48,833 nt of DNA from an uncultured Candidatus Saccharibacteria bacterium (GTDB lineage: Bacteria; Patescibacteriota; Saccharimonadia; Saccharimonadales; Saccharimonadaceae), in the NCBI GenBank assembly GCA_964483505.1, contig CAZAAQ010000001.1, positions 3,821 through 52,653 on the forward strand, written 5' to 3'. Below are positions 43-37,157 of this stretch, in pieces. Within the stretch, counting starts at the first letter, position 1. The number at the start of each line of letters is the position of its first letter. A program made the position numbers and the translations under genes. Under the pieces are notes generated by a model. That model was given only the letters and a program-made list of their open reading frames with translations, was not told the DNA's origin and made no database searches.

Positions 43-1341
43 ATGCAAAACACTACTAAACAAGCCATTATTGATTATCTAACTGACAAAAGTCTTTTAA
101 TTTTAGGCTATGGCAGAGAAGGAAAGAGTGCGCTCCAGTTCATCCAACAGAATTTACCAACCGCAACTGTTGCCGTAGCTGACCAAGCCACCATTGACTT
201 GCCGGGCGTTAGAACTATCTCTGGTCCAGATTATCTCCAAGCCGTTAATGATTATGATCTTGTCATCAAATCGCCTGGCGTCGTTATCGAAGATGCGCTA
301 AGCACTGAGCAAAAGCAAAAACTCACCTCTATTACTGATTTATTTTTGCGATTTTGCCCGAACTCAATTATTGGCATCACCGGCACCAAGGGAAAGAGCA
401 CAACCGCCTCACTCACCTACCATATTCTAAAGACCTGTGGCAAAAATGCTCTATTAGTTGGCAATATCGGCAAACCATGTTTCGACGTGCTCGACGAGAT
501 AGCGCCGGATTCCATCATCGTTTTCGAACTATCCTGCCACCAACTCGAGTTTGTCCAAGCCAGTCCGCATATTGCTATCTTGCTCAATCTTTACGAAGAA
601 CATCTTGATCACTATATTAACGCTGAAGCCTACTATACGGCCAAAAAGAATATCTACGCCCATCAAACTGCCGCCGATTTTCTGATTTATGGCGACATTT
701 TTCAGCACGCTAGCCGGAGCGAAATTGATTATCTACCAATGCATAAGGTTGATTTATATCATGACATGCATATTGAACCACAAGAAGTTCACACCAGTTT
801 GCTCGGCGAACATAACATGTATGATATATTTGCCGCTACCGCTGCTTGTGAAGCCGTCGGCTTAGACCGACAAGACATTTTAGCCGCCGTTGCGTCATTC
901 CACGGCTTGCCACATCGTCTTGAATTTATCGGCAACTACCACCAAATTAATTTTTATAACGATTCCATCGCCACCGCTCAAGAAGCCACCATTAATGGCA
1001 TCAAAGCCCTTAGCAACGTTGATACCGTCATCCTCGGCGGCATGGATCGAGGTCTTGATTATCATCCATTAGTTGATTTTCTCCGCAGTAGTACCGTTCG
1101 CAATGTGCTGCTGCTACCAAACACCGAACAGTCTTTTCAACGCATTTTCAACGAAGCACCTTTCTCACAGAATCTCCGCTTTGCAAAAGACTTAGATGAG
1201 GCCGTCAAACTATCTTATCAGCTTACCGCCGAAGGACACAGTTGCTTACTTTCTCCTGCTGCCGCCAGTTATGGATTTTATAAAAACTTCGAAGCACGCG
1301 GCGACCATTTCCGCCAATTAGTCCAAAAATACGCCAAATAA
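43..1341 (+). CDS. murD: UDP-N-acetylmuramoylalanine--D-glutamate ligase
   Basis: 432-aa ORF with Mur-ligase P-loop GITGTKGKSTT, N-terminal LILGYGREGKS segment and C-terminal GLPHRLE motif. Confidence 0.9.
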   Translation: MQNTTKQAIIDYLTDKSLLILGYGREGKSALQFIQQNLPTATVAVADQATIDLPGVRTISGPDYLQAVNDYDLVIKSPGVVIEDALSTEQKQKLTSITDLFLRFCPNSIIGITGTKGKSTTASLTYHILKTCGKNALLVGNIGKPCFDVLDEIAPDSIIVFELSCHQLEFVQASPHIAILLNLYEEHLDHYINAEAYYTAKKNIYAHQTAADFLIYGDIFQHASRSEIDYLPMHKVDLYHDMHIEPQEVHTSLLGEHNMYDIFAATAACEAVGLDRQDILAAVASFHGLPHRLEFIGNYHQINFYNDSIATAQEATINGIKALSNVDTVILGGMDRGLDYHPLVDFLRSSTVRNVLLLPNTEQSFQRIFNEAPFSQNLRFAKDLDEAVKLSYQLTAEGHSCLLSPAAASYGFYKNFEARGDHFRQLVQKYAK

Positions 1342-1986: not shown

Positions 1987-3957
1987 GTGAATTTCAAGTT
2001 ACATAGTAAATATCAGCCAACTGGCGACCAACCTCAGGCCATCGAAACCCTAATGAATGGGCTGAATCATGGTCAACGTGCGCAGACTTTGCTCGGCGTC
2101 ACTGGTTCCGGCAAAACTTTCACGATGGCAAACATTATTGAAAAATATAATAAACCGACCCTAGTTTTGGCACACAACAAAACGCTCGCCGCTCAGCTAT
2201 ATTCTGAATTCCGTGATTTCTTTCCGGAAAACGAAGTCCATTATTTTGTTTCTTACTTCGATTACTACCAACCAGAAGCTTACATCGCTAGCACCGACAC
2301 CTACATTGAAAAGGATAGCGCCATCAATGAGGAAATTGATCGCTTACGCCACGCTGCTACGGAAGCACTGCTAACCCGTAAAGACACCATCATTGTCGCC
2401 TCCGTTTCTTGTATCTACGGCATTGGCTCGCCGTCCAACTATAAGGCCATGGCAATTCGGCTAGCCAAGGGTGAGCAGCGCGATACTTCGCAATTTATTC
2501 GATTACTAAATGAAATCCAGTATCATCGCAACGACATCGCGTTTGAACGGGGCAACTTTCGTGTACGCGGCGATACAATTGACGTGTTTCCAGCCTCCGG
2601 CGATCGCGCCTATCGACTAGAATTTGGTTTTGGCATACTAGAGAATATCAAGGTTATTGACCCACTAACTGCTGAAGTTCTGGCTGAACCCACCGAAATT
2701 GGAATCTTTCCAAATACTCACTATGCTACGCCGAAAGATTCGCTTGAACTCGCTATCCGTAAAATCCGCGCCGAATACGAAGAACGTGTCAAATATTTTG
2801 ACCAAGAACATAAATATCTTGAAGCTCAACGTTTATCCCAACGCATCAAATATGACCTCGAGATGCTAGAGCAAACCGGCTTCGTAAAAGGTATTGAAAA
2901 CTACTCCCGCCACCTTGATGGTCGCGCCCAAGGGCAACCGCCAGCCACTTTACTAGATTATTTCCCAGAAGAATTTTTGATGATGATTGACGAATCGCAT
3001 ATGACCTTACCGCAAGTCCGCGGTATGTATAACGGCGACCGCGCACGCAAAGAAACTCTCGTCGAATATGGCTTCCGTTTGCCCAGCGCTCTGGATAACC
3101 GCCCGCTCACTTTCGAAGAATTTGATCGCCACATTCATCAAGTCATTTATACTTCTGCCACGCCTGGCGAGTATGAACTTGGGCATAGCCCACGTCCAGC
3201 CGAGCAAGTCATTCGCCCAACTGGTCTATTAGACCCAGAAATCAGCGTGCGCCCAAGCGAAAATCAAATTGATGACTTAGTCGAAGAGATTGACCAGTGC
3301 ATCAGCAAGGGACAACGCGTGCTAGTTACCACTCTAACTAAGCGGATGGCCGAAGATTTATCTGAGCATCTTGTTGAACTCGGTATCAAAACCGCCTACA
3401 TTCACAGCGACATTGATACGCTCGAACGTGGCGATATTTTACATGATTTAAGGGCTGGCACTTATGACGTGCTGGTCGGTATTAACTTATTACGCGAAGG
3501 CCTAGATTTGCCAGAAGTCGCACTGGTTGCCATTCTCGACGCCGACAAAGAAGGCTTTTTGCGCAGTGAGTCGGCCTTAATTCAAACGATTGGTCGCGCC
3601 GCCCGCCACGTTGAAGGCCATGTAATTATGTATGCCGACAACATGACCGGCAGCATGGAACGCGCAATTTCCGAAACCTACCGCCGCCGAGAAATTCAAC
3701 AAAAATACAACGAAGAGCATCACATCACGCCACAAAGCGTCTCCAAAGAGCTTTCCGAAGGTTTGCGTGCCATCATCCCAGAAAAAGAGAAGAGCAATAA
3801 ACTTAATCTCAAGAAAATTCCGCGCGAAGAATTACCAACTATTATCAAAGAACTGAGCTCTCAGATGCAACTTGCTGCCGCGAACTTGGAATTTGAACGT
3901 GCCGCCGAGCTGCGTGACCAAATCGAAGATATCAAAACCGCACTAGAGCACAAATAG
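1987..3957 (+). CDS. uvrB: excinuclease ABC subunit B
   Basis: 656 aa with Walker [14 protein letters not shown] box, helicase C motifs and C-terminal UVR domain ([13 protein letters not shown]). GTG start. Confidence 0.95.
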
Positions 3958-3987: not shown

Positions 3988-4809
3988 CTATTTTGCTTGA
4001 TGTACATTAATTTGTGGAAACGGTATCGAAATATGAGCACGCTCAAACTCGGCTTTGATCTCTTTACGCAAAGCCCGCTCCACGTCATTATGCTTGTTTG
4101 GCTTACACAGCATACGCACACGCCAAACTACGGCGGAATCCGCAAAATCTTCAATGCCAAGAACCTGCAGCTCGCCTGTTGCGCCCGGTACCACGCCAGT
4201 CACTTTTTGGCCAGCTTGACGGAGCGCATATTCGACTTCCTCGGACTTAGCGTCATATGGCGCGTTCACATCAACTTGTGCCAAAAAATCACCATCCGTA
4301 AAATTAGTCACCTGCGTAATGCCGCGGTTTGCAATCCATTTAATCTGTCCGCGATAGTTCCGGATCGTTGTGGTTTTTAGACCAAGGCCAATCACTTCGC
4401 CCTCAAAGCCATCAATTTCAACCACGTCGCCCACATCATATTCACCTTCCGTGATAATCGAAACACCAGCAATAATATCCGTTGCAAAATCTTTTAGCGC
4501 TAAACCAGCTAACAAAGTAAAAATGCCTAGACCGGCCAGCATCGACGTAACATTTACGCCAAATACCCCTAACACCGCTAGCAATGCAATAAACAATACA
4601 ATATATTTTTCAACGTTGACAATCATACCTTGCATTGTGGCAACGCGCTGGCGTTTTTGCGCACTACGCAAACGTTTGCGCGATTTGCCCATAATTCGCT
4701 TCGTAATATTTTTGATAATCACATAAATGACCACCGCCACCAATATAATCACGACCGGATAGATAATCTTTGTCCAATCAATCGTTTCAAATTTTAATTC
4801 TACTGACAT
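3988..4809 (-). CDS. MscS-family mechanosensitive channel
   Basis: 273 aa with N-terminal TM helices, then GDVVEIDGFEGEVIGLGLKTTTIRNYRGQ, typical of the MscS beta domain. SD GTGAGG lies upstream. Confidence 0.75.
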   Translation of the reverse strand: MSVELKFETIDWTKIIYPVVIILVAVVIYVIIKNITKRIMGKSRKRLRSAQKRQRVATMQGMIVNVEKYIVLFIALLAVLGVFGVNVTSMLAGLGIFTLLAGLALKDFATDIIAGVSIITEGEYDVGDVVEIDGFEGEVIGLGLKTTTIRNYRGQIKWIANRGITQVTNFTDGDFLAQVDVNAPYDAKSEEVEYALRQAGQKVTGVVPGATGELQVLGIEDFADSAVVWRVRMLCKPNKHNDVERALRKEIKAEFERAHISIPFPQINVHQAK

Positions 4810-4895: not shown

Positions 4896-6338
4896 ATGGC
4901 AGTTACACGTTTTGCGCCCTCACCGACGGGCTATATCCATATCGGCAATGTTCGTTCCGCGATTTACCCATATCTAATTGCGAAACAGAGCAAAGGCACT
5001 TTTATTTTACGCATCGAAGACACCGATCGCGCTCGCTATGTTGATGGTGCCACCAAACTAATCGAGGACACCTTGACTTGGCTTGGACTTGACTGGGATG
5101 AAGGCCCAGAAAAAGGTGGCGCTCACGGTCCATATTTTCAAACTGAACGCACTGCTATTTATCAAGCATGGGCAGAAAAATTAATCGCCGCTGGCCGTGC
5201 CTACGCCGACCCAACCGATGCCGAAACTATCAACCAATATCGCGCCGAAGCCAACGCCAACAAAGTGCCATTTTTGTATCGTAACTACCGGCCAAATCAG
5301 AATATCACTTGGCAACCTGGCATTCCGCTGCGCTTCAAGGCTCAACCAAAAAGTTATAATTACCACGATGCGGTATTTGGCGATTTGCACATGGGTCCAG
5401 AAACCCAAGATGACATCATTCTAATTAAAGCCGACGGCTTACCAACCTACAACTTTGCGCATATTGTTGATGATGCCACCATGGGCGTAACTCACATCTT
5501 GCGCGGACAAGAATATTTACCAAGCATGGGCAACTATTTAGCCCTCTACGAAGCGCTCAATCTTGAACGCCCAATTTTCGTGCATTTACCGCACATCTTA
5601 GCACCAACTGGCAACAAAAAACTCGGCAAACGTGATGGCGCCAAATCAGCAGCTGATTATCGTACAGACGGCATTTTACCAGAAGCCATGCTGAATTTTC
5701 TTGCCTGCTTAGGCTGGAACGATGGCACTGAACAAGAAATCTACACTAAATCAGAACTTATTGAAAAATTTAGTATTGATCGCATTCAACACGCCGGTGC
5801 TCGATTTGACGAGCAAAAATTACTTTGGCTCAACGGTCAATGGGTCCGTCGTTTATTTGCCGAAGATGCGCGCGCTTTATTCGCCCGCACGGCAGAGTTC
5901 TGGCCAGATAGTGCCCAAAACGCTTCTGAAGATCAAAAATTCCGCATCTTTAGTATTATTTACGACCGTCTAAAAACTCTTTCCGATATTAAAGATATGA
6001 CCAACTATTTCTTCGCTGACCCACAAGTTGATTTGGACATGTTGGCTAACAATAAAGCCCTAAAAAAGCTTTCCGAACAAGAAATGTGCGATTTACTACA
6101 TCAAAGCATCACTAAACTTGACGCTCTCGATGAATGGTCGCCCGAAATGTTGCAACGGTCTCTCAACGAATTATTGACCGAAACCGCACAAAAACCTGCC
6201 ACTTTGTTTGGCCTAATTCGTCTAAGCGTATCTTTTGCGCCGTTTAGCCCAGCTTTGCATGATACGCTCAGCGTCATTGGCAAAGATGCAACTATGGCAA
6301 GACTTAACGCTGTTGTTACTGCATTTAGCCGCGACTAA
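4896..6338 (+). CDS. gltX: glutamate--tRNA ligase
   Basis: 480 aa with class I motifs PSPTGYIHIGN (HIGH-type) and KLGKRDG (KMSKS-type). Confidence 0.92.
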   Translation: MAVTRFAPSPTGYIHIGNVRSAIYPYLIAKQSKGTFILRIEDTDRARYVDGATKLIEDTLTWLGLDWDEGPEKGGAHGPYFQTERTAIYQAWAEKLIAAGRAYADPTDAETINQYRAEANANKVPFLYRNYRPNQNITWQPGIPLRFKAQPKSYNYHDAVFGDLHMGPETQDDIILIKADGLPTYNFAHIVDDATMGVTHILRGQEYLPSMGNYLALYEALNLERPIFVHLPHILAPTGNKKLGKRDGAKSAADYRTDGILPEAMLNFLACLGWNDGTEQEIYTKSELIEKFSIDRIQHAGARFDEQKLLWLNGQWVRRLFAEDARALFARTAEFWPDSAQNASEDQKFRIFSIIYDRLKTLSDIKDMTNYFFADPQVDLDMLANNKALKKLSEQEMCDLLHQSITKLDALDEWSPEMLQRSLNELLTETAQKPATLFGLIRLSVSFAPFSPALHDTLSVIGKDATMARLNAVVTAFSRD

Positions 6339-8903: not shown

Positions 8904-8980
8904 TGGTGATTCCGGAGGGAGTCGAACCCTCGATTTTCTGGATGAGAACCAGACGTCCTGGACCACTAGACGACGGAACC
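8904..8980 (-). tRNA. tRNA-Glu(CUC)
   Basis: Hand-folded cloverleaf. Acceptor GGTTCCG/CGGAATC, anticodon loop TTCTCAT, T-arm GAGGG-TTCGACT-CCCTC, encoded CCA. Confidence 0.85.
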
Positions 8981-9043: not shown

Positions 9044-9490
9044 ATGATTTTTCTAAAACGCTACTGGCGAATCATATTTCCAATATTTTTCATCATCGTA
9101 ATTTGGTGTTTTTCCGCCACTAGTGGTGACGCTTCTAATGCTGAATCGCTCAAGGTCGCCTCAATTTTCGGCTTACCGAATGCCGTAATGCGCAAACTCG
9201 CCCATATGGCCTTGTTTGGCGCACTCGGTTATTCCGTGGCTAGTTATATTAAAGGTTTACATACTGCTATCTTCCCAAATGCTCGCATTTTTATTTCTTG
9301 CGTCATTCCAGTTGTCGTTTACGGCGCCATTGACGAAGTCCACCAACTCACCGTTGCAGGACGTAACGCTACTATCAATGACGTAATTATTGACTCCATC
9401 GCGGGCATCTGTGGCGTCCTAGTCTATATTGCCATTTTCTGCTTTTACCGCCGCTGGAAACTTTATCACATTATTCGAAAAAAGAATTAA
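9044..9490 (+). CDS. VanZ-like family membrane protein
   Basis: 148 aa with 4 hydrophobic helices. RKLAHMALFGALGY and DEVHQ motifs are typical of VanZ-like proteins. Confidence 0.65.
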   Translation: MIFLKRYWRIIFPIFFIIVIWCFSATSGDASNAESLKVASIFGLPNAVMRKLAHMALFGALGYSVASYIKGLHTAIFPNARIFISCVIPVVVYGAIDEVHQLTVAGRNATINDVIIDSIAGICGVLVYIAIFCFYRRWKLYHIIRKKN

Positions 9491-9575
9491 CTCGTCATTT
9501 GCCATACCACTAGGCACATGACTTTTTGTTCACTAATCTTTCTATTATATCACACTTTACATACTCTGTCAATTT

Positions 9576-9590: not shown

Positions 9591-10901
9591 ATGAAATTAC
9601 CCGTTGTAGCAATCATTGGCCAAACAAATGCCGGCAAATCCAGCTTGTTTAACCGTATCATCCGTAAATCACAAGCCATCGTTGCACGCGAAGCGGGCAC
9701 CACACGTGATAATGTTGTCGCGAAAGTTGACAACCAATATTTACTTATCGATACCGCTGGTCTCAAAGACCCAAGTGATGAATTTGAAGCACATATTCAA
9801 GATCAAATTGACGACGCCGTTAGCTCCGCTGATTTAATTTTGCTTGCGCTTGATGGAACTAAATATCCTAACCATGACGACAAACTGATTGCCAAAAAAG
9901 CACTCAAAAGCGGCAAACCAGTTATCCTATTGCTCAACAAAAGCGATTTAGGCGAATCTTTGCCAGTTGAAGAGTTCTACAATCTTGGCGTCAAAAATCC
10001 CATCCGAGTTTCAGCTACTACTGGCACTAATATTAATGAGCTTCGGACCCAAATTATTGCCGGTCTGCGCGCCCAAGGTTTGCGGCCAATCGCCGACGAA
10101 GCAGGCGAACAGGATGATGACGTCTTACGCATTGCCTTAATCGGTCGACCAAACGTCGGGAAAAGCTCTTTATTCAATACCTTAGCCAAAAAGCAACAAG
10201 CCGTTGTAGCAGACTTATCTGGCACGACTAGAGACGTTAACCGCATCGAATTACGCTACAAAGGTCGCACTATCGAATTACTTGATACGGCTGGCCTACG
10301 CCGCCCAGGCAAACGGGAAGTGGGCATTGAAAAGTTCTCCGCAGTACGCAGTTTAGCCGCCATCCAAGAAGCCGACATTTGTTGCTTACTCGTTGATAGC
10401 ACCGAGCCACATTCAAAATTAGACCAAACTTTAGCTGGCCAAATTATCGAAGCCGGCAAAGGCATTATTATTGTTGTCACTAAAACCGATCTCGACCATG
10501 ATGATTCAGATGAAATCTTGAATAACCTCGAACGCGATTTTAATTTTATTCCGTATGCACCAGTCGTTCTGACTAGCAGCGAAACTGGCAAAAACGTCAC
10601 CAAAATCTTTGAGCTCGCTGAACAAATTGACCGCGCTCGCCACGCCGAATTGAAGACTTCCGACCTTAACAAAGTCTTAATGGCTGCCGTTGCCGCGCAC
10701 CCACCGGCTGGGCTCAAAAATACGCATCCAAAACTTCGTTACATGGTCCAAACTGATACCTGCCCACCATGGTTTGTGGTTTACGGCAGTAATCTCAGTC
10801 TTTTACACTGGAGCTACAAACGCTATCTTGAGGGATGCCTCCGCGATGCGTTTCCTTTTGAAGGTACGCCAATTTGTTTTAGCTTCCGCAACCGCGATTA
10901 A
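9591..10901 (+). CDS. der: ribosome-biogenesis GTPase Der (EngA)
   Basis: 436 aa with two tandem G domains (GQTNAGKSSLFN ... DTAG; GRPNVGKSSLFN ... DTAG) and a KH-like C-terminus. Confidence 0.92.
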   Translation: MKLPVVAIIGQTNAGKSSLFNRIIRKSQAIVAREAGTTRDNVVAKVDNQYLLIDTAGLKDPSDEFEAHIQDQIDDAVSSADLILLALDGTKYPNHDDKLIAKKALKSGKPVILLLNKSDLGESLPVEEFYNLGVKNPIRVSATTGTNINELRTQIIAGLRAQGLRPIADEAGEQDDDVLRIALIGRPNVGKSSLFNTLAKKQQAVVADLSGTTRDVNRIELRYKGRTIELLDTAGLRRPGKREVGIEKFSAVRSLAAIQEADICCLLVDSTEPHSKLDQTLAGQIIEAGKGIIIVVTKTDLDHDDSDEILNNLERDFNFIPYAPVVLTSSETGKNVTKIFELAEQIDRARHAELKTSDLNKVLMAAVAAHPPAGLKNTHPKLRYMVQTDTCPPWFVVYGSNLSLLHWSYKRYLEGCLRDAFPFEGTPICFSFRNRD

Positions 10902-12540: not shown

Positions 12541-13062
12541 ATGAAATTAATTATCGGCTTTGGCAACCCAGGCCCAAATTATAACTTTACCCGCCATAAC
12601 TTCGGTTTTTTAGCACTCGATTTTTATGCCAAAGTGCATCAACTCAATTGGCAAACCAAACCCAAATTCTTTGCCGAAGTCGCCAAAGACGACGAACATG
12701 ATTTATTACTAATTAAACCGCAGACTTTTTATAACGATGTTGGCAACAGCATTCAGGCTGTCTGTAATTTTTATAAAATTGCCTCCACTGATATTCTAGT
12801 CATTTGTGACGACTTTAATCTAGATTTTGGCAAGTTACGTTTCCGCGAACGGGGCAGTAGTGGTGGCAATAATGGACTTAAATCAACTATTGCCGCACTT
12901 GGCACTGAAGATTTTCCGCGCTTACGACTCGGTACCGCTAATGATGAATTGCGCCGCCAAATTGGCGATGTCGATTTTGTGCTGTCACGTTTTACGGACG
13001 TCGAGCATGAGCAATTGCCACAAATTTTGCAAAACGTCACCAAATATATTGCAGAGTACTAG
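12541..13062 (+). CDS. pth: peptidyl-tRNA hydrolase
   Basis: 173 aa. The N-terminus LIIGFGNPGPNYNFTRHNFGF is the canonical Pth signature. Confidence 0.9.
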   Translation: MKLIIGFGNPGPNYNFTRHNFGFLALDFYAKVHQLNWQTKPKFFAEVAKDDEHDLLLIKPQTFYNDVGNSIQAVCNFYKIASTDILVICDDFNLDFGKLRFRERGSSGGNNGLKSTIAALGTEDFPRLRLGTANDELRRQIGDVDFVLSRFTDVEHEQLPQILQNVTKYIAEY

Positions 13063-13111
13063 TAAAATCATACTTTTATAACACATTTATTCGCGATAAC
13101 AATAAGCACTT

Positions 13112-13137
13112 TCACCCCTGTTTTATCTGTAAAACCT
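13112..13137 (+). repeat. TCACCCCTGT-tttatctg-TAAAACCT repeat, copy a
   Basis: Matches copy b on both flanks, with an internal 8-nt duplication. Confidence 0.6.
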
Positions 13138-13190
13138 TAAAAATACGCTGAAATATACAGTTGATTTTAAGAAAAAAAGTGAAAAAAGTG

Positions 13191-13219
13191 TTGACCAAAA
13201 GTCAAGTGTATGCTATAAT
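13191..13219 (+). promoter_or_regulatory. near-consensus sigma-70 promoter (TTGACC, 17-nt spacer, TGcTATAAT)
   Basis: -35 at 13191-13196, TG at 13211-13212, -10 at 13214-13219. This is the best promoter match in the window. Confidence 0.65.
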
Positions 13220-13225
13220 CCAACT

Positions 13226-13525
13226 AGTTTTGATCGATGAGGTCAAAAACCCGCACCTAAATAAATTATTCAAACTTTGCTAAATTTATTTTAGCAATTG
13301 TTGCGTGCTTTGGAAACTCTTTCGGCCTTCAAATTTCTTTTATACAATTTGAAGTGAAAAAGTATTACCTCCACTTAGAAAGTTGCTTCTAAAGCTAGCA
13401 ATCCCTTTAACCGGCGGACCCCGCGCTTTGTGAGGTGGGTCACGCTCCGGATCATCCGGTACCATGGAGGTGTGTTGAAGGGCCAAATAGCCCCAGGTGA
13501 TGCCCACCCTTACCTGGGGCTTTTT
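13226..13525 (+). ncRNA. candidate structured small RNA of about 300 nt, family unknown
   Basis: Bounded by the consensus promoter and a strong terminator, with no credible ORF. Hairpins at 13277-13297 and 13327-13354. Long-range pairing of 13366-13373 with 13465-13472. Confidence 0.45.
13489..13525 (+). terminator. intrinsic terminator of the candidate sRNA
   Basis: 10-bp stem AGCCCCAGGT / ACCTGGGGCT with a 13-nt loop, then TTTTT. Confidence 0.75.
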
Positions 13526-13574
13526 GATGGAAAATTTTTTCAATCTCTTATAACGTGCTAGACTGCAAGAAAGA

Positions 13575-13583
13575 TGTTAATAT
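13575..13583 (+). promoter_or_regulatory. extended -10 box TGTTAATAT, 7 nt upstream of topA ATG
   Basis: Read directly. It supports ATG 13591 (MSKNLVIVESPAKA) rather than the longer ORF-track start. Confidence 0.5.
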
Positions 13584-13590
13584 AAAACAC

Positions 13591-15873
13591 ATGAGTAAAA
13601 ACTTAGTCATCGTCGAGTCCCCAGCGAAAGCCCATACTATCGAGAAATATCTCGGTAGTGATTTTCAGGTCCTAGCTTCCGTCGGCCATATTCGCAAAGA
13701 CACTAAGGTTGATAAGAATACGTTCGATGTCACTTACGAAATTGACCCCGGTCATAAATCCGTTATTGCTGAACTGAAAAAAGCTGCCAAAGCTACTGAT
13801 AAAATCTGGCTCGCAACCGATGAGGACCGCGAAGGAGAAGCCATCTCTTGGCATCTTTTGCAGGTGTTAAATTTGCCAGACAGCACTGCGCGCATTACTT
13901 TCCACGAAATTACCAAAACTGCCCTTGAGAACGCCATTCAAAATCCTCGCACTGTCGATATGGATATGGTTTCTAGCCAACAAGCCCGTCAAACGCTTGA
14001 TATGCTAGTTGGTTTCGACTTGTCCGGCATCGTCCGCAAGAAAGTACCTGGTGCCATTTCCGCCGGCCGCGTGCAAAGTCCAGCGCTCCGTCTAATCGTT
14101 GAAAGGGAACAGAGCATTGAAAAATTCAACGGTAGTGCCAACTATAAAGTAACTGGCGATTTCGGCTTTGCTACTGCTCTTAATCATGATTTCGCCACTG
14201 AGGCCGAAGCGAATGATTATTTACACCAACTGGTCGGCGCCAAATACGTCGTCTCAGGCGTCATAACCACGCCTGGCGTGCGTAAACCGGCCCCGCCTTT
14301 CACCACTGCATCTATGCAAATTGAAGCCAACAGTAAGCTAGGATTTAGCACGCGTACTACCATGCAGGCCGCCCAAGCCCTTTATCAAGCCGGCTTAATT
14401 ACTTATCACCGCACCGATAGCCTAAACCTCAGTAAACAGGCCATCGCCGCCATGGCCAGCTACATTGAACAGACTTATGGCAAATCTTATTTGCGTACCC
14501 GAAATTTCCATACTAAAAGTATGAACGCGCAGGAAGCGCATGAAGCCATCCGTCCAACCAATATCAGCACCGAAGTAGCCGGCAGGAACGATTATGAACG
14601 CCGACTTTATAACCTCATTCGCGGTCGTGCTCTCGCCACACAAATGAGCGACGCCGAAATTGAAAACACTACCGCCCGCATTGCAGCTCCAGCTGATTAT
14701 TTCTTTGAAGGGAAGGGCGAAGTCGTCATCTTTGATGGCTTCCTAAAAGTCTACGGCCGTTTTAAAGAAAACAACCTGCCTAAATTAACCGCCGGCGACG
14801 CACTCAAAGCCAAAACTATTATCGCAAAACAAACTTTTGCCAAAGCTCCAGCTAGATACACTGAGGGCTCACTCGTCAAAAAACTGGAAGAACTCGGCAT
14901 TGGTCGACCAAGCACTTATGCTAGCATTATGTCTGCTATCCAAGCCCGCGGCTATGTGATTAAAGGTGAGTCAGACGGCGAAGAGCGCGATGTCCGGATA
15001 CTCAAGTTGGAAAATGACCAAATTACGGCCGAAACCGTCACCGAAAAGTTCGGCGCCAACAAGGGCAAACTTATTCCGACTCCAATCGGTGAGCTCATCT
15101 CTGGTTTTTTGACCGATAACTTTAAAAATATCGTCGACTACAAATTCACTGCTAATATTGAAAAAGATCTTGATTTAATTGCCGCGCACAAACTCGAGCG
15201 AGTCAAAATGCTACGTGATTTCTATGGACCTTTTAACGACGAAGTCCTTGCCGCCGAAGGCATTGAACGTTACAACAATGCGCGCTTGTTAGGGCACGAC
15301 CCAGAAACCGGCAAACCAATTTACGCGAAAGTCGGTAAAAACGGTGGCTTTATCCAACTCGGCGAAAACGAAAAGGAAAGTGGCGAAAAACCACGCTTTG
15401 CGCCATTGCCAAAACGCAAAAGCGTCAAAACCGTTACTCTTGAATTAGCGCTCAAGCAATTAGCGCTGCCGCAATTACCACGCGCACTTGGCACCACCAA
15501 GGATGGCGTTGAATTAATTGCCGCCTCTGGCCCATTTGGACCATATCTTAAAGCTGGCAAATACAACATTCCAATCAAAGATTTTGATCCATATACTATT
15601 ACATTAGAAGACGCGGAACCACTCTATGAAAAGAAACGCGATTCCTACATTGCAGATTGGGGCGAAATTCAAATTATCAACGGCGCATATGGCCCTTACG
15701 TAAAAGGACCTGGCCGCCGCAATAATGCGCGCATTCCAAAAGATGTCGACCCCAAGACTATAACTGAGGCTCAGGCCAAGGAGATGCTTGAGAACAAGCC
15801 TAAAACTCGGCGTCGCCCAGTCAAACGCAGTCGTGGCAAATCAACGACCAAAACCACCAAAAAAAGCGGCTAA
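13591..15873 (+). CDS. topA: DNA topoisomerase I
   Basis: Toprim N-terminus VIVESPAKA ... TDEDREGE, active-site region ITYHRTDS, basic Lys/Arg-rich C-terminal tail. Confidence 0.93.
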   Translation: MSKNLVIVESPAKAHTIEKYLGSDFQVLASVGHIRKDTKVDKNTFDVTYEIDPGHKSVIAELKKAAKATDKIWLATDEDREGEAISWHLLQVLNLPDSTARITFHEITKTALENAIQNPRTVDMDMVSSQQARQTLDMLVGFDLSGIVRKKVPGAISAGRVQSPALRLIVEREQSIEKFNGSANYKVTGDFGFATALNHDFATEAEANDYLHQLVGAKYVVSGVITTPGVRKPAPPFTTASMQIEANSKLGFSTRTTMQAAQALYQAGLITYHRTDSLNLSKQAIAAMASYIEQTYGKSYLRTRNFHTKSMNAQEAHEAIRPTNISTEVAGRNDYERRLYNLIRGRALATQMSDAEIENTTARIAAPADYFFEGKGEVVIFDGFLKVYGRFKENNLPKLTAGDALKAKTIIAKQTFAKAPARYTEGSLVKKLEELGIGRPSTYASIMSAIQARGYVIKGESDGEERDVRILKLENDQITAETVTEKFGANKGKLIPTPIGELISGFLTDNFKNIVDYKFTANIEKDLDLIAAHKLERVKMLRDFYGPFNDEVLAAEGIERYNNARLLGHDPETGKPIYAKVGKNGGFIQLGENEKESGEKPRFAPLPKRKSVKTVTLELALKQLALPQLPRALGTTKDGVELIAASGPFGPYLKAGKYNIPIKDFDPYTITLEDAEPLYEKKRDSYIADWGEIQIINGAYGPYVKGPGRRNNARIPKDVDPKTITEAQAKEMLENKPKTRRRPVKRSRGKSTTKTTKKSG

Positions 15874-16059: not shown

Positions 16060-16088
16060 TTGACAACATGATTTTATCATGTTAATAT
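16060..16088 (+). promoter_or_regulatory. sigma-70 promoter (TTGACA, 17-nt spacer, TGtTAATAT) with an embedded inverted repeat
   Basis: -35 at 16060-16065 and -10 at 16083-16088. The spacer is filled by the palindrome AACATGAT-ttt-ATCATGTT (16065-16083), which looks like an operator. Confidence 0.55.
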
Positions 16089-16140: not shown

Positions 16141-17172
16141 ATGAATAATGCGGAAACAATTACTAAGGCTATTTCGAGTAGTCTAAGTATTATCGAACAA
16201 GAACGCGAAAGAGAAATCACATCCCGCCGTTTCGGTCTCAACGGACACAAAGAGACGCTTGAGCAGATCGGCGAAATGTTATCTATTACACGTGAGCGTG
16301 TACGCCAACTAGAAAAGGCTATTCTTATCCGTCTCCGTATTGCTGCCGAAGAGGGCAAAATCGCTGAACTTGCTCCCGCCGAAAAGATTATCATCCGCAA
16401 CTTGACCGAAATGGGCCGCATTGCTCGTACTTCCGATCTTGCTAAAAAAGTCCTTGGGCACGAAGCATCCGAGGTCGAAAAAGCCAACTTTAATTTCCTT
16501 GGTGAAATCTCACCAGCTCTCATCATCTTAGCCGAAAACGATAAATATCATAACGCAATTGGCATTGCCGAATATGGCGATGAAAAAGCCATCCGTGCTA
16601 AGATTGATGAAATCGTCAACTTGATTAAAACCAACAAAAAACCGATGGATCTTGATGAGCTTGATGCCAAACTCAACTACGAACACCCGAGCCACATCGA
16701 AGCCATTGCTCGTCTCAGTAAACAACTTTCCAGCCTTAACGGCCAATGGGGTTTAACTAAATGGCCAACTGTTAATCCAAAGAATATTCGTGACAAAATC
16801 TATGTTGTGCTAGAAGAGCACAAAGAACCAATGCATTTCTCCGATATTGCGAAAGCCATCAGCTCATCGGATTTCCGCCGCAAAAATGTCACTATCCAAG
16901 CTATCCACAACGAGCTCATTAAAGATTCTCGTTTTGTGCTAATCGGTCGCGGGATTTATGCACTTGATAGTTGGGGTTTTGAAAAGGGCACCGTATCTGA
17001 TATCATCATTAAAATTCTCAAGAAAGCGGGCTCAGAAGGCCTATCACGCAAAGAAATCGTCAAGCAAGTGCTCAAAGAGCGCAAAGTTAAAGAAACTACT
17101 GTTTTGCTCAATCTTCAAGACAAAAAATTGTTTACGCGAGTTGGTAAAGATTACTACAAACTTGCGGCTTAA
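16141..17172 (+). CDS. sigma-70 region 4 plus HARE-HTH-like domain DNA-binding protein (not a complete sigma factor)
   Basis: Residues 25-70, RRFGLNGHKETLEQIGEMLSITRERVRQLEKAILIRLR, match sigma region 4.2. No region 2 is present. The C-terminal half has two winged-helix segments ending RFVLIGRGIYAL and LFTRVGKDYYKL, typical of HARE-HTH. Confidence 0.7.
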   Translation: MNNAETITKAISSSLSIIEQEREREITSRRFGLNGHKETLEQIGEMLSITRERVRQLEKAILIRLRIAAEEGKIAELAPAEKIIIRNLTEMGRIARTSDLAKKVLGHEASEVEKANFNFLGEISPALIILAENDKYHNAIGIAEYGDEKAIRAKIDEIVNLIKTNKKPMDLDELDAKLNYEHPSHIEAIARLSKQLSSLNGQWGLTKWPTVNPKNIRDKIYVVLEEHKEPMHFSDIAKAISSSDFRRKNVTIQAIHNELIKDSRFVLIGRGIYALDSWGFEKGTVSDIIIKILKKAGSEGLSRKEIVKQVLKERKVKETTVLLNLQDKKLFTRVGKDYYKLAA

Positions 17173-22844: not shown

Positions 22845-24278
22845 TTAAATGTGACGAATTTCAATCGAATTAGTACCACCCTGCTCATCTCTTAAGCCAG
22901 AGACTAATACAACTAGCAATGAATCTTTGCCTTCCGGTACGCGCAAATAGCCTCTATCTTTAAGCTCTTGCGCTAGGTCAAAGGCATAATTTTCATCATA
23001 TGGGCGCACAAACGACACATTTGAATAAGTCAACGCCAGTTGACCAGCCACCCGCGGGTCGCTCGTTACCGAAAGCGTTGGGATGTTTGGGCGTTGCGCC
23101 GCAATTGCCGCTGCCGTTGCACCGCTCTTAGTCGCCGCAACAATTAAATCAGCGTCAATTTGCTCAGCCATCTGGACTGCTGCGCGCGCAATTGCATCAT
23201 AGTTATGATATTCGCCGACCGGCTCAGACTCAATCGCCGAAATCTTCGAGTTCGCTTGTGTATACAGAATTACCTTTTTCATCTCTTTAATAGCTTCAAT
23301 TGGATACTTACCATTGGCTGTCTCATCTGACAACATCACTGCGTCTGCGCCCAAAATCACCGCCGTTGCGACATCGCTCACTTCGGCTCGCGTCGGCTCT
23401 GGATTGTCCACCATGCTAGCCATCATTTGAGTTGCCACAATACAAAGCTTCGAATATTGGCGACATAAGGCAATCAATTTACGTTGTACGATTGGTACAA
23501 CTTCTGCTCCGGCTTCTACCGCCATGTCCCCACGCGCAATCATGATACCGTCTGTTGCTTTAACAATAGCTTCCATCGCTTCGTCAGACTCAATGGCTTT
23601 TTTAGTTTCAATCTTAGCAATAATTTGCGCCGTGCTACCGTGACCCACCAAAATTTGGCGCAATTTTTCAATATCTTCAGCTGATTGAATAAAGCTCATC
23701 GCGACATAATCAAAATCACGCGACGCTCCAAACTCAAGGTCAGCTAAATCCTTATCAGTGATAATGTCGCCGCCAAGATCAGTGTCTGGCAAGTTAATGC
23801 CCTTATGGCTCATAATAAAGCCATCATTTTCAATTTCAATCTTGATTGCTGTAGCTGAAGCAATTTCTACAACTTTCGCGCGAATCTTTCCATCAAATAG
23901 AAAAATCGGCTCACCAACTTTTACTTTTTCCGCCAGGTTATATTGTACAGGTAGACAATTGCCGCCATCGTGCTCTTCGACCGCATGATCGAGAATCAAT
24001 ACATCGCCTGTATGAACATCATAATGGTTATCTTTTAGATCGCCCAAACGAATCTTCGGACCTTGCAAGTCTTGCACGATAGCCACGGATTTACCGCGCT
24101 CCGCCGCATATTTACGAATAATACGAATTTGTTCGTCTCGCTCATCGTAGGTACCGTGGCTAAAATTTAGGCGAAAGCCATTTACGCCGGCATAAACCAT
24201 CTCTTTTAATTTGTCTTCAGCAAAGACCGACGGACCAACCGTCGCTAGGATTTTTGTTCTTTTTAGTAATTTGCTCAT
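22845..24278 (-). CDS. pyk: pyruvate kinase
   Basis: 477 aa with KILATVGP, GVNGFRLNFSHG and MIARGDMAVE motifs. Confidence 0.92.
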   Translation of the reverse strand: MSKLLKRTKILATVGPSVFAEDKLKEMVYAGVNGFRLNFSHGTYDERDEQIRIIRKYAAERGKSVAIVQDLQGPKIRLGDLKDNHYDVHTGDVLILDHAVEEHDGGNCLPVQYNLAEKVKVGEPIFLFDGKIRAKVVEIASATAIKIEIENDGFIMSHKGINLPDTDLGGDIITDKDLADLEFGASRDFDYVAMSFIQSAEDIEKLRQILVGHGSTAQIIAKIETKKAIESDEAMEAIVKATDGIMIARGDMAVEAGAEVVPIVQRKLIALCRQYSKLCIVATQMMASMVDNPEPTRAEVSDVATAVILGADAVMLSDETANGKYPIEAIKEMKKVILYTQANSKISAIESEPVGEYHNYDAIARAAVQMAEQIDADLIVAATKSGATAAAIAAQRPNIPTLSVTSDPRVAGQLALTYSNVSFVRPYDENYAFDLAQELKDRGYLRVPEGKDSLLVVLVSGLRDEQGGTNSIEIRHI

Positions 24279-37003: not shown

Positions 37004-37090
37004 TGGTGCACCTGACTAGACTCGAACTAGCACAGCCTTACGGCCACTACCACCTCAAGGTAGCGTGTATACCAATTTCACCACAGGTGC
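37004..37090 (-). tRNA. tRNA-Leu(GAG)
   Basis: 87 nt. Acceptor GCACCTG/CAGGTGC, anticodon loop TTGAGGT, long variable arm TGGCCGTAAGGCTGT, encoded CCA. Confidence 0.88.
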
Positions 37091-37157
37091 AACGCGCTTA
37101 TTATATCAAGTTTTGCCCTACTCCGTCAATCTTGTCCTAGCCAAGACCCCCTCAGAA

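Follow-up and report, generated by a model that had tools for sequence, protein, structure and literature searches.

The 48,833-nucleotide (nt) stretch of DNA considered here, called the window throughout, derives from an uncultured Candidatus Saccharibacteria bacterium and is near-identical to DNA from wastewater metagenomes. The locus of interest, at 13191-13525 on the plus strand, lies between pth (PF01195, E = 8.6e-52), which ends upstream at 13062, and topA (PF01131, PF01751 and PF13368), whose ATG is found downstream at 13591. The Pth protein of the window shares 58-74% identity with its counterparts in Saccharibacteria (TM7) genomes that carry the label Nanosyncoccaceae, Nanosyncoccus or Nanosynbacter. 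The intervening locus is very probably an independent, conserved and structured non-coding RNA (ncRNA) gene of a new family, a level of confidence that applies to its identity and not to its mechanism. The family, seen so far only in Saccharibacteria, is neither in Rfam nor in the searchable literature: no description of the RNA gene was found in publications on Saccharibacteria, TM7x and Patescibacteria, and a TM7x transcriptome paper states that no small RNAs have been validated.

Transcription is predicted to start from the promoter noticed in the original prediction, which was made from the sequence of the window alone. It comprises a -35 hexamer TTGACC (13191-13196), a 17-nt spacer and an extended -10 box TGcTATAAT (13211-13219), matches 11 of 12 positions in addition to the TG extension and ranks first in a scan of the 10-18 kb region. 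The pattern TTGACN-17-TGnTANNNT is retained in 146 of 153 unique homologous elements with complete flanks; the spacer is always 17 nt, TG is present in all 146 promoters found and TATAAT in 116 of them. Judged by these features, it is a near-consensus, extended -10 promoter of the sigma-70 type. It had been called the best promoter in the window but is the second-best, since a minus-strand site at 9572-9544 combines a 12/12 match with TG. The predicted transcript of ~300 nt covers 13226-13526, with a 5′ end inferred ~7 nt past the -10 box and a 3′ end placed in a U-tract. Among relatives, predicted transcripts measure 231-370 nt (median 309) between about +1 and the U-tract.

A homologue of the 350-nt element occurs in 69 of 80 pth-anchored loci (nhmmer), with ~68-87% nucleotide identity (blastn). 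A collection of species-representative genomes was scanned with an exact two-block motif (AACCGGCGGRCCC, a gap of 3-25 nt, GTGAGGTGGGT); among the matches listed are >120 contigs, all from Saccharibacteria save a few otherwise labelled bins. No copy was found in a viral contig collection. The gene is present once per locus in 200 loci and in the window, and ~190 Saccharibacteria loci, which share the promoter, the helices and the terminal hairpin, provide 134 distinct full-length sequences. The loci compared belong to Nanosyncoccus/Nanosynbacter-type Saccharibacteria, and the organisms bearing the RNA stem from rumen, gut, mouth and wastewater. The RNA contains invariant blocks of 13-21 nt, in contrast to the Pth protein encoded next to it, for which identity is only 58-74%. 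Two contigs with Firmicutes names, L084 (CAVDHS010000017.1, ‘Bulleidia sp.’) and L092 (CAVEVP010000003.1, ‘Clostridiales bacterium’), carry the RNA motif as well; they are probably mis-binned Saccharibacteria contigs in those metagenome-assembled genomes.

Fold, coding potential and the 3′ hairpin

Three sources underlie the fold, and their results agree: RNAalifold applied to 20 full-length sequences, 69 3′ cores aligned with a covariance model, and mutual information scanned over 134 sequences. The interval has a minimum free energy of -100.7 kcal/mol (z = -4.8 versus dinucleotide shuffles). In the 3′ core alignment, which was fitted to the model and thus favours it, 98.9% of cells hold standard pairs and 22 of 35 pairs show compensatory changes, values as high being reached in 0/500 shuffles; sliding the partners as a control lowers pairing to 28-55%. 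The full-length alignment, a plain MAFFT one, has 97.6% of its cells paired and compensatory changes in 25 of 70 pairs, and again 0/500 shuffles reach the observed values. The helices covary strongly, in support of the original prediction. Mutual information recovers the same helices and adds two, P3c and P7b. G-U pairs in P6 and P8 are compatible with the plus strand only.

According to the comparative model, the RNA folds into two domains, a central three-way junction (P3/P4/P4b) and a 3′ core junction (P5/P6/P7/P7b). They are preceded by P1 (13228-13248; UUUUGAUC / GGUCAAAA), the protective 5′ hairpin, in which six of seven pairs are compensatory. A conserved single-stranded block, CGCACCUAAAUAA (13252-13264), is nearly invariant in the alignments. 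The two hairpins originally described in the 5′ half, an 8-bp one at 13277-13297 (P2) and a 9-bp one at 13327-13354 (P4), are both present and covary in relatives, with compensatory changes in four of the five modelled pairs of P2 and in six of the nine pairs of P4. The central junction is closed by P3a, P3b and P3c, with 5′ strands at 13300-13304, 13307-13315 and ~13319-13323; the 3′ strands lie within 13378-13402 in the covariation fold (P3b at 13387-13395 and P3a at 13398-13402). Four pairs of P3b are compensatory. In P3c, pairs 13320:13381 and 13321:13380 are formed in 90-97% of sequences with UA/CG/UG exchange, while the remaining pairs are lower (15-69%), in part through alignment noise. 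P4b (13360-13376), a short AAGU/ACUU hairpin, presents an invariant 9-nt loop, AUUACCUCC, that resembles an anti-Shine-Dalgarno sequence. Its 17-mer is invariant in alignment A1, and pair 13360:13376 changes from AU to UA in 10 of 134 sequences.

The 3′ core is closed by P5, formed by CCCUUUAAC (13403-13411) and GUUGAAGGG (13474-13482). Six of its nine pairs are compensatory, 99.7% of cells are paired in 69 sequences, and pair 13407:13478 gives the strongest mutual-information signal of all. Within this junction, P6 (13413-13446) pairs GGCGGACCC with GGGUC(A)CGCU, leaving a bulged purine, and 100% of its cells are paired. P6 never covaries: seven of its nine pairs are fixed and the other two change on one side only (GC/GU and GU/AU/GC). 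Its 15-nt loop holds an invariant GUGAGGU, similar to a Shine-Dalgarno (SD) sequence. P7 (13447-13459; CCGGA/UCCGG) is a variable hairpin with four of five pairs compensatory; it is longer in locus L156 and absent from L129. The short local hairpin P7b (13459-13473; GUACC / GGUGU), which contains UGGAGGUG, has moderate support. Its pair 13462:13470 is paired in 99% of 134 sequences (UA in 110, CG in 23) and pair 13459:13473 in 93%.

This last helix bears on a long-range pairing that had been thought to close the GC-rich half of the molecule, between UACCUCCA (13366-13373) and UGGAGGUG (13465-13472). The two segments are complementary in the window, but the pairing is not conserved. The 5′ strand is invariant and the 3′ strand drifts (via AGAGAUG and AAGAAG). 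Across 20 sequences, pairing reaches only 70.6% of cells and shows no covariation. Of 134 sequences, only 18% form C13368:G13470, and G13470 covaries with 13462, its local partner in P7b.

The 5′ half is replaced in four loci with an intact 3′ core: L121 (~880-1215, plus strand), L129 (~1102-1340, minus strand), L163 and L156 (~101-440, minus strand). It is also shorter in L121 and L129. ACCUCC or CCCCUUCCCC motifs recur in the new 5′ halves.

The same alignments bear on coding potential. Open reading frames (ORFs) of 40-67 codons are present in the window sequence, and a 67-amino acid antisense ORF, a 43-amino acid sense ORF or a micropeptide could in principle be the product of the locus. 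The antisense ORF, listed in the original prediction, is present in the ORF list of the window. The 7-codon ATG ORF described there for the sense strand can be seen in the sequence, and relatives have no ATG at that place. A conserved ORF was sought in 46 homologues, in which the longest ORF varies from 23 to 99 amino acids and shifts strand and frame, and no Pfam match was obtained for the 67- or the 43-amino acid ORF. Moreover, third-position wobble is absent from the invariant 17-21-mers, and compensatory changes accompany stem insertions, whose length is arbitrary. These are RNA signatures rather than coding ones, and a small protein is scarcely credible.

The element ends with P8 (13487-13521), a long, G+C-rich hairpin in which all 12 modelled pairs are compensatory and whose apical loop, UGCCCACCC (13501-13509), is invariant. 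A U-tract, T5, follows directly at 13521-13525, and a T-run follows the hairpin in most relatives. The terminator-like hairpin with TTTTT proposed at 13489-13521 is thus present. A terminator scanner missed it because, in the 10-bp stem reading, it leaves a 13-nt loop and the scanner accepts loops of 3-8 nt only. From this arrangement P8 is predicted to act as an intrinsic terminator in the window genome. The view of it as a terminator and nothing else did not stand: the loop is invariant, and some relatives have a separate terminator. Indeed, GCCCACCC is invariant in the 39-sequence core alignment A2; L043, outside A2, reads GCGCACCC instead. In L035 (~2290-2427, minus strand) and L137 (1211-1346, plus strand), no U-tract follows the GCCCACCC hairpin, and a separate terminator hairpin comes after it. 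Since P8 is retained there, its function is separable from termination. In L114 (~5688-5875, minus strand), the GCCCACCC hairpin is duplicated in tandem.

A hairpin with a U-tract ahead of topA could also be a regulated terminator, the element being then a cis-acting topA leader (attenuator, riboswitch or T-box-like). The usual position of the RNA gene, between pth and topA and on the same strand, agrees with this explanation, as topA lies on the same strand <300 nt downstream in ~45 loci and within 2 kb in ~70 more. However, the RNA gene is inverted relative to pth and topA in ~17 loci, and many further loci have other genes interposed between it and pth or topA. The boundary of topA in the window is marked, outside the RNA, by a leaderless start at 13575-13593, where the box TGTTAATAT (13575-13583) stands 7 nt ahead of the ATG, as originally noted. 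Such a -10 box ends 5-9 nt before the start of topA in 104 of 115 unique relatives, with a TG extension in 94 of the 104 and an SD-like sequence in only one, which argues for a leaderless topA mRNA transcribed from its own promoter. Inversion and a separate topA promoter together indicate that the RNA is not a topA leader in general. In addition, no conserved antiterminator alternative and no T-box or riboswitch match were found, and P8 is kept where a second terminator follows. A leader function is therefore most improbable, and the early view of a self-contained unit holds.

Known RNA classes and the transcript

No established RNA family accounts for the element. A scan of the whole window with Rfam 15 at gathering thresholds returned five tRNAs only, and ARAGORN found the same number of tRNAs and no tmRNA, in line with the first reading that no known family matched. 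Lowering the threshold to E <= 10 (13000-13700, 13220-13530 and the homologue in L061) yielded terminator-like or chance matches of 10-18 bits. A comparison by eye with RNase P RNA, signal recognition particle (SRP) RNA, tmRNA, T-box, ZTP and box C/D k-turn elements gave superficial likenesses (e.g. GAGG-NNN-GUC and AACCGGC), all in the wrong order and structural context.

The size of the RNA, its strong promoter and its conservation are nevertheless compatible with a diverged universal RNA (RNase P RNA, tmRNA, SRP RNA or 6S RNA) missed by standard models. NCBI PGAP annotates only two ncRNAs in one complete Nanosynbacter genome, which leaves room for at least one universal RNA without annotation there. 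Against this, the searches at E <= 10 on two divergent members gave no RNase P, tmRNA, SRP or 6S match, and the fold is a chain of local domains with unpaired 5′ and 3′ ends. RNase P RNAs have conserved motifs CR-I (GAGGAAAGUCC) and CR-V (ACAGAA..GGCUUA). The former is missing from the element and from all 200 loci and the latter from the element; RF00010 and RF00011 have no match at E <= 10, and the covariation fold has neither an end-pairing P1 nor a long-range P4-type helix. As for tmRNA, there is no tRNA-like domain and no T-arm motif, and the ends are unpaired. For SRP RNA, no match at E <= 10 and no helix-8 motif were found, and the sole candidate hairpin, P7, varies in sequence and loop and is lost in L129. 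No 6S-family match was obtained, and the multi-domain fold differs from the rod with a central bubble of 6S and Ms1 RNAs.

Diverged RNase P RNAs from the candidate phyla radiation (CPR) provide the closest parallel in this group, sharing with the element a CPR host, a length of ~300 nt and a failure of default annotation to detect them (PMC8172020). In 10 of 35 circular CPR genomes they score too low for the Rfam cut-offs (PMC8172020), an argument for a missed universal RNA, but class-A RNase P RNAs were recovered with RF00010 in 35 of 35 CPR genomes, including two Saccharimonadia (Lui et al. 2021, PMC8172020). The present RNA differs in having no P1/P4 long-range helices, no CR-I/CR-V and no match to RF00010 at E <= 10. 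Taken together, a diverged universal RNA is very unlikely.

An abundant stable RNA had been expected from the strength of the promoter. Expression was read only from assembled contigs of public runs, in which strand and depth are unreliable, and in four RNA-labelled runs the contigs cover the RNA gene and not the flanking genes. Runs X46 and X47 (coded organism labels B and C) have contigs over 4479-4723 and 4485-4634 of the Nanosynbacter locus L061, with zero coverage for ~1 kb on either side of the RNA gene. The bovine gut and bovine metatranscriptomes X59 and X65 cover L019 only at 3693-3947; pth has no coverage and topA none save a 38-nt stretch of an unrelated 3.7-kb X59 contig. In the window itself, the wastewater metatranscriptomes X27 and X28 provide contigs at 13215-13413 and 13214-13408, with no other contigs within ~100 nt of the RNA gene and low-depth contigs elsewhere in the flanking genes. 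The contig data fit a transcript more abundant than its neighbours, the ends of which stay predicted. The quality of these data counts against an independent gene with the ends proposed here, as do the X27 and X28 contigs, which begin ~11 nt upstream of the inferred transcript start, and the limited lineage range of the loci compared.

Other promoters and apparently leaderless genes of the window

The best promoter found in the whole-window scan, the minus-strand site at 9572-9544, is a perfect 12/12 TTGACA-17-TGaTATAAT. It is directed leftwards into the 3′ end of a plus-strand ORF (~9046-9510), a VanZ-like membrane protein by by-eye reading, and overlaps the plus-strand promoter of the leaderless gene that starts at 9591; an antisense transcript may arise from the minus-strand site. 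The tRNA-Glu gene (8904-8980, minus strand) has its own, nearer box, TTTACA-17-TGtTAAGAT. The third-best promoter of the window, TTGACG-18-TATAAT with TG, lies at 37129 on the minus strand, upstream of tRNA-Leu (37004-37090). The promoters at 13191 and 37129 are thus directly upstream of RNA genes, while the best one, at 9572, is not.

In about one-third to one-half of the larger ORFs of the window, a TAnnnT box that often carries TG ends 5-9 nt ahead of the start codon and an SD sequence is absent, for example in those starting at 43, 1987, 9591, 12541, 13591, 17215 and 47193 on the plus strand and at 24278 and 31336 on the minus strand. The remaining larger ORFs carry SD sequences of the GGAGG or AAGGAG type. 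The boxes suggest that first genes of this Saccharibacterium are extensively transcribed without a leader. A gene at 16141-17172 (plus strand), with a 10/12 TG-extended promoter upstream at 16060, encodes a 343-amino acid protein with an N-terminal Sigma70_r4 and a HARE-HTH domain. HARE-HTH is the fold of the RNA polymerase delta subunit.

Candidate mechanisms and meaning for Saccharibacteria

Several features give clues to the mechanism. Up to three C-rich elements similar to anti-SD sequences (CACCU, ACCUCC and CCCACCC) lie in loops or single strands, and one invariant SD-like segment, GAGGUGGG, is located in and beside the P6 loop. In the divergent forms L121, L129 and L156 the 5′ half is otherwise different, but the 3′ core persists together with a motif that is ACCUCC or C-rich, and P8 is found also in relatives in which it does not act as terminator. 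Finally, the genes of the window are split into SD-led and apparently leaderless ones.

The preferred proposal, put forward tentatively and with distinctly less than even confidence, is that the RNA is a modular trans-acting riboregulator or part of a ribonucleoprotein (RNP). The near-invariant 3′ core (P5-P6 and the P8 loop) would be a scaffold for a conserved partner, and the C-rich elements CACCU (13255-13259), AUUACCUCC in the P4b loop and UGCCCACCC in the P8 loop would contact G-rich SD-type sequences in mRNAs. Such contacts might modulate translation initiation. Alternatively, the C-rich elements could pair with the invariant GAGGUGGG of the RNA itself, in a loop-loop interaction or a pseudoknot.

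From what is generally known of such regulators, the RNA may be compared with RsaE/RoxS, the UCCC-motif small RNAs and RNAIII of Staphylococcus, which are likewise encoded by stand-alone genes with their own promoter and intrinsic terminator. Conserved, unpaired, C-rich loop motifs that are complementary to SD sequences and recur in one RNA are typical of the RsaE/RoxS type, and here AUUACCUCC and UGCCCACCC are invariant and located in loops of the covariation fold. The differences are substantial: the Saccharibacteria RNA is about three times longer than RsaE, has ~60 invariant nucleotides outside the loops in a multi-helix junction, shows no sequence or covariance-model similarity to this class, comes from a different phylum and has no targets found.

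A number of observations weigh against the riboregulator proposal. No enrichment of the loop complements (GGGUGGGC and GUGGAGGUAAU), or of that to the 5′ block, was seen in the 48.8-kb window or in 1.3 Mb of relatives’ loci; generic GGAGG-type SD sequences do occur in the genome, as seen in the window. The proposed contacts and the pseudoknot give no covariation test because the loops and GAGGUGGG never vary, and the natural variant L043 (GCGCACCC) has no compensating change. Furthermore, the ~60 invariant nucleotides in helices and junctions are more than a base-pairing small RNA needs, and such invariance is equally compatible with an RNA that binds a protein, binds a ligand or is catalytic.

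Under the first of these options, the RNA would have no base-pairing targets and would act as a housekeeping RNP scaffold or sequester a protein, either titrating its partner or forming part of it. A conserved protein or machine would then bind at the invariant 3′ junction and the C-rich loops; a KH-domain/poly(C)-binding protein, the 30S subunit (through the SD-like GAGGUG) and RNA polymerase are candidates. This role is in keeping with the invariant blocks of 13-21 nt and with the behaviour of P6, which never covaries while P5, P7 and P8 do. The near-consensus promoter of essentially all homologues (146/153), the single-copy, syntenic gene in genomes described as ~94% coding and the lack of an mRNA target signal in the window and in the 1.3 Mb of loci add to these arguments. 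In lineage-wide occurrence, single copy, strong transcription, a size of ~200-300 nt and independence from neighbours, the RNA also resembles 6S and Ms1. However, these are rods with 5′ and 3′ ends paired around a central bubble, whereas in the present RNA local domains follow one another, the ends are unpaired and Rfam gives no match; more generally, its architecture is unlike that of the protein-sequestering 6S, Ms1 and CsrB. No partner protein was found and no conserved neighbouring gene points to one. The 5′ domain is largely replaceable with its C-rich motif kept, more like a seed than a protein-recognition surface. The scaffold and its binding sites, together with the partners named, thus remain a serious possibility that falls well short of likely.

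A third explanation is a ligand-sensing or catalytic RNA acting in trans (riboswitch-like sensor or ribozyme), with the invariant P5/P6/P7b junction and a pseudoknot between the P6 and P8 loops (GGUGGG x CCCACC) as binding or active site. Invariant junction nucleotides flanked by covarying helices are typical of aptamers and ribozymes. The pseudoknot could form 6 bp, or 7 bp in L026 and L072 via an extra G, and the non-covarying strands of P6 could reflect two mutually exclusive pairings. But the pseudoknot shows no covariation and is broken without compensation in L043, no downstream gene is consistently controlled, and no Rfam 15 riboswitch or ribozyme matches even at E <= 10. Such a function is improbable.

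Orphan RNAs such as raiA, OLE and ROOL/GOLLD offer a more general parallel to the riboregulator or RNP proposed here. They too combine complex junctions, invariant nucleotides and covarying helices with a lineage-restricted distribution, were recognised by comparative analysis only and have a genomic context that gives no function. No model of these RNAs matches, either in the scan of the whole window or at E <= 10, and size, architecture and host lineage differ.

More speculatively, the RNA might represent a new housekeeping class of the whole episymbiotic lineage, whether as the RNA core of an RNP yet to be described or as a structured anti-SD mimic, an idea that we regard as doubtful. If true, the mimic, via CACCU/ACCUCC/CCCACCC and GAGGUGGG, could shift ribosomes between SD-led mRNAs and the many leaderless ones in these reduced genomes.

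Saccharibacteria are ultrasmall obligate epibionts whose genomes are, by literature accounts, ~94% coding. Because its promoter and its blocks of 13-21 nt are kept across habitats in such genomes, the RNA is probably important to these bacteria. Its role is testable now, since Saccharibacteria are genetically manipulable by natural transformation (PMC10633639). The RNA would add a missing family to RNA annotation and, as the flagging of the Bulleidia- and Clostridiales-labelled contigs illustrates, would serve as a compact Saccharibacteria marker in metagenome bins. Above all, it gives a handle on post-transcriptional control or RNP biology in the CPR.

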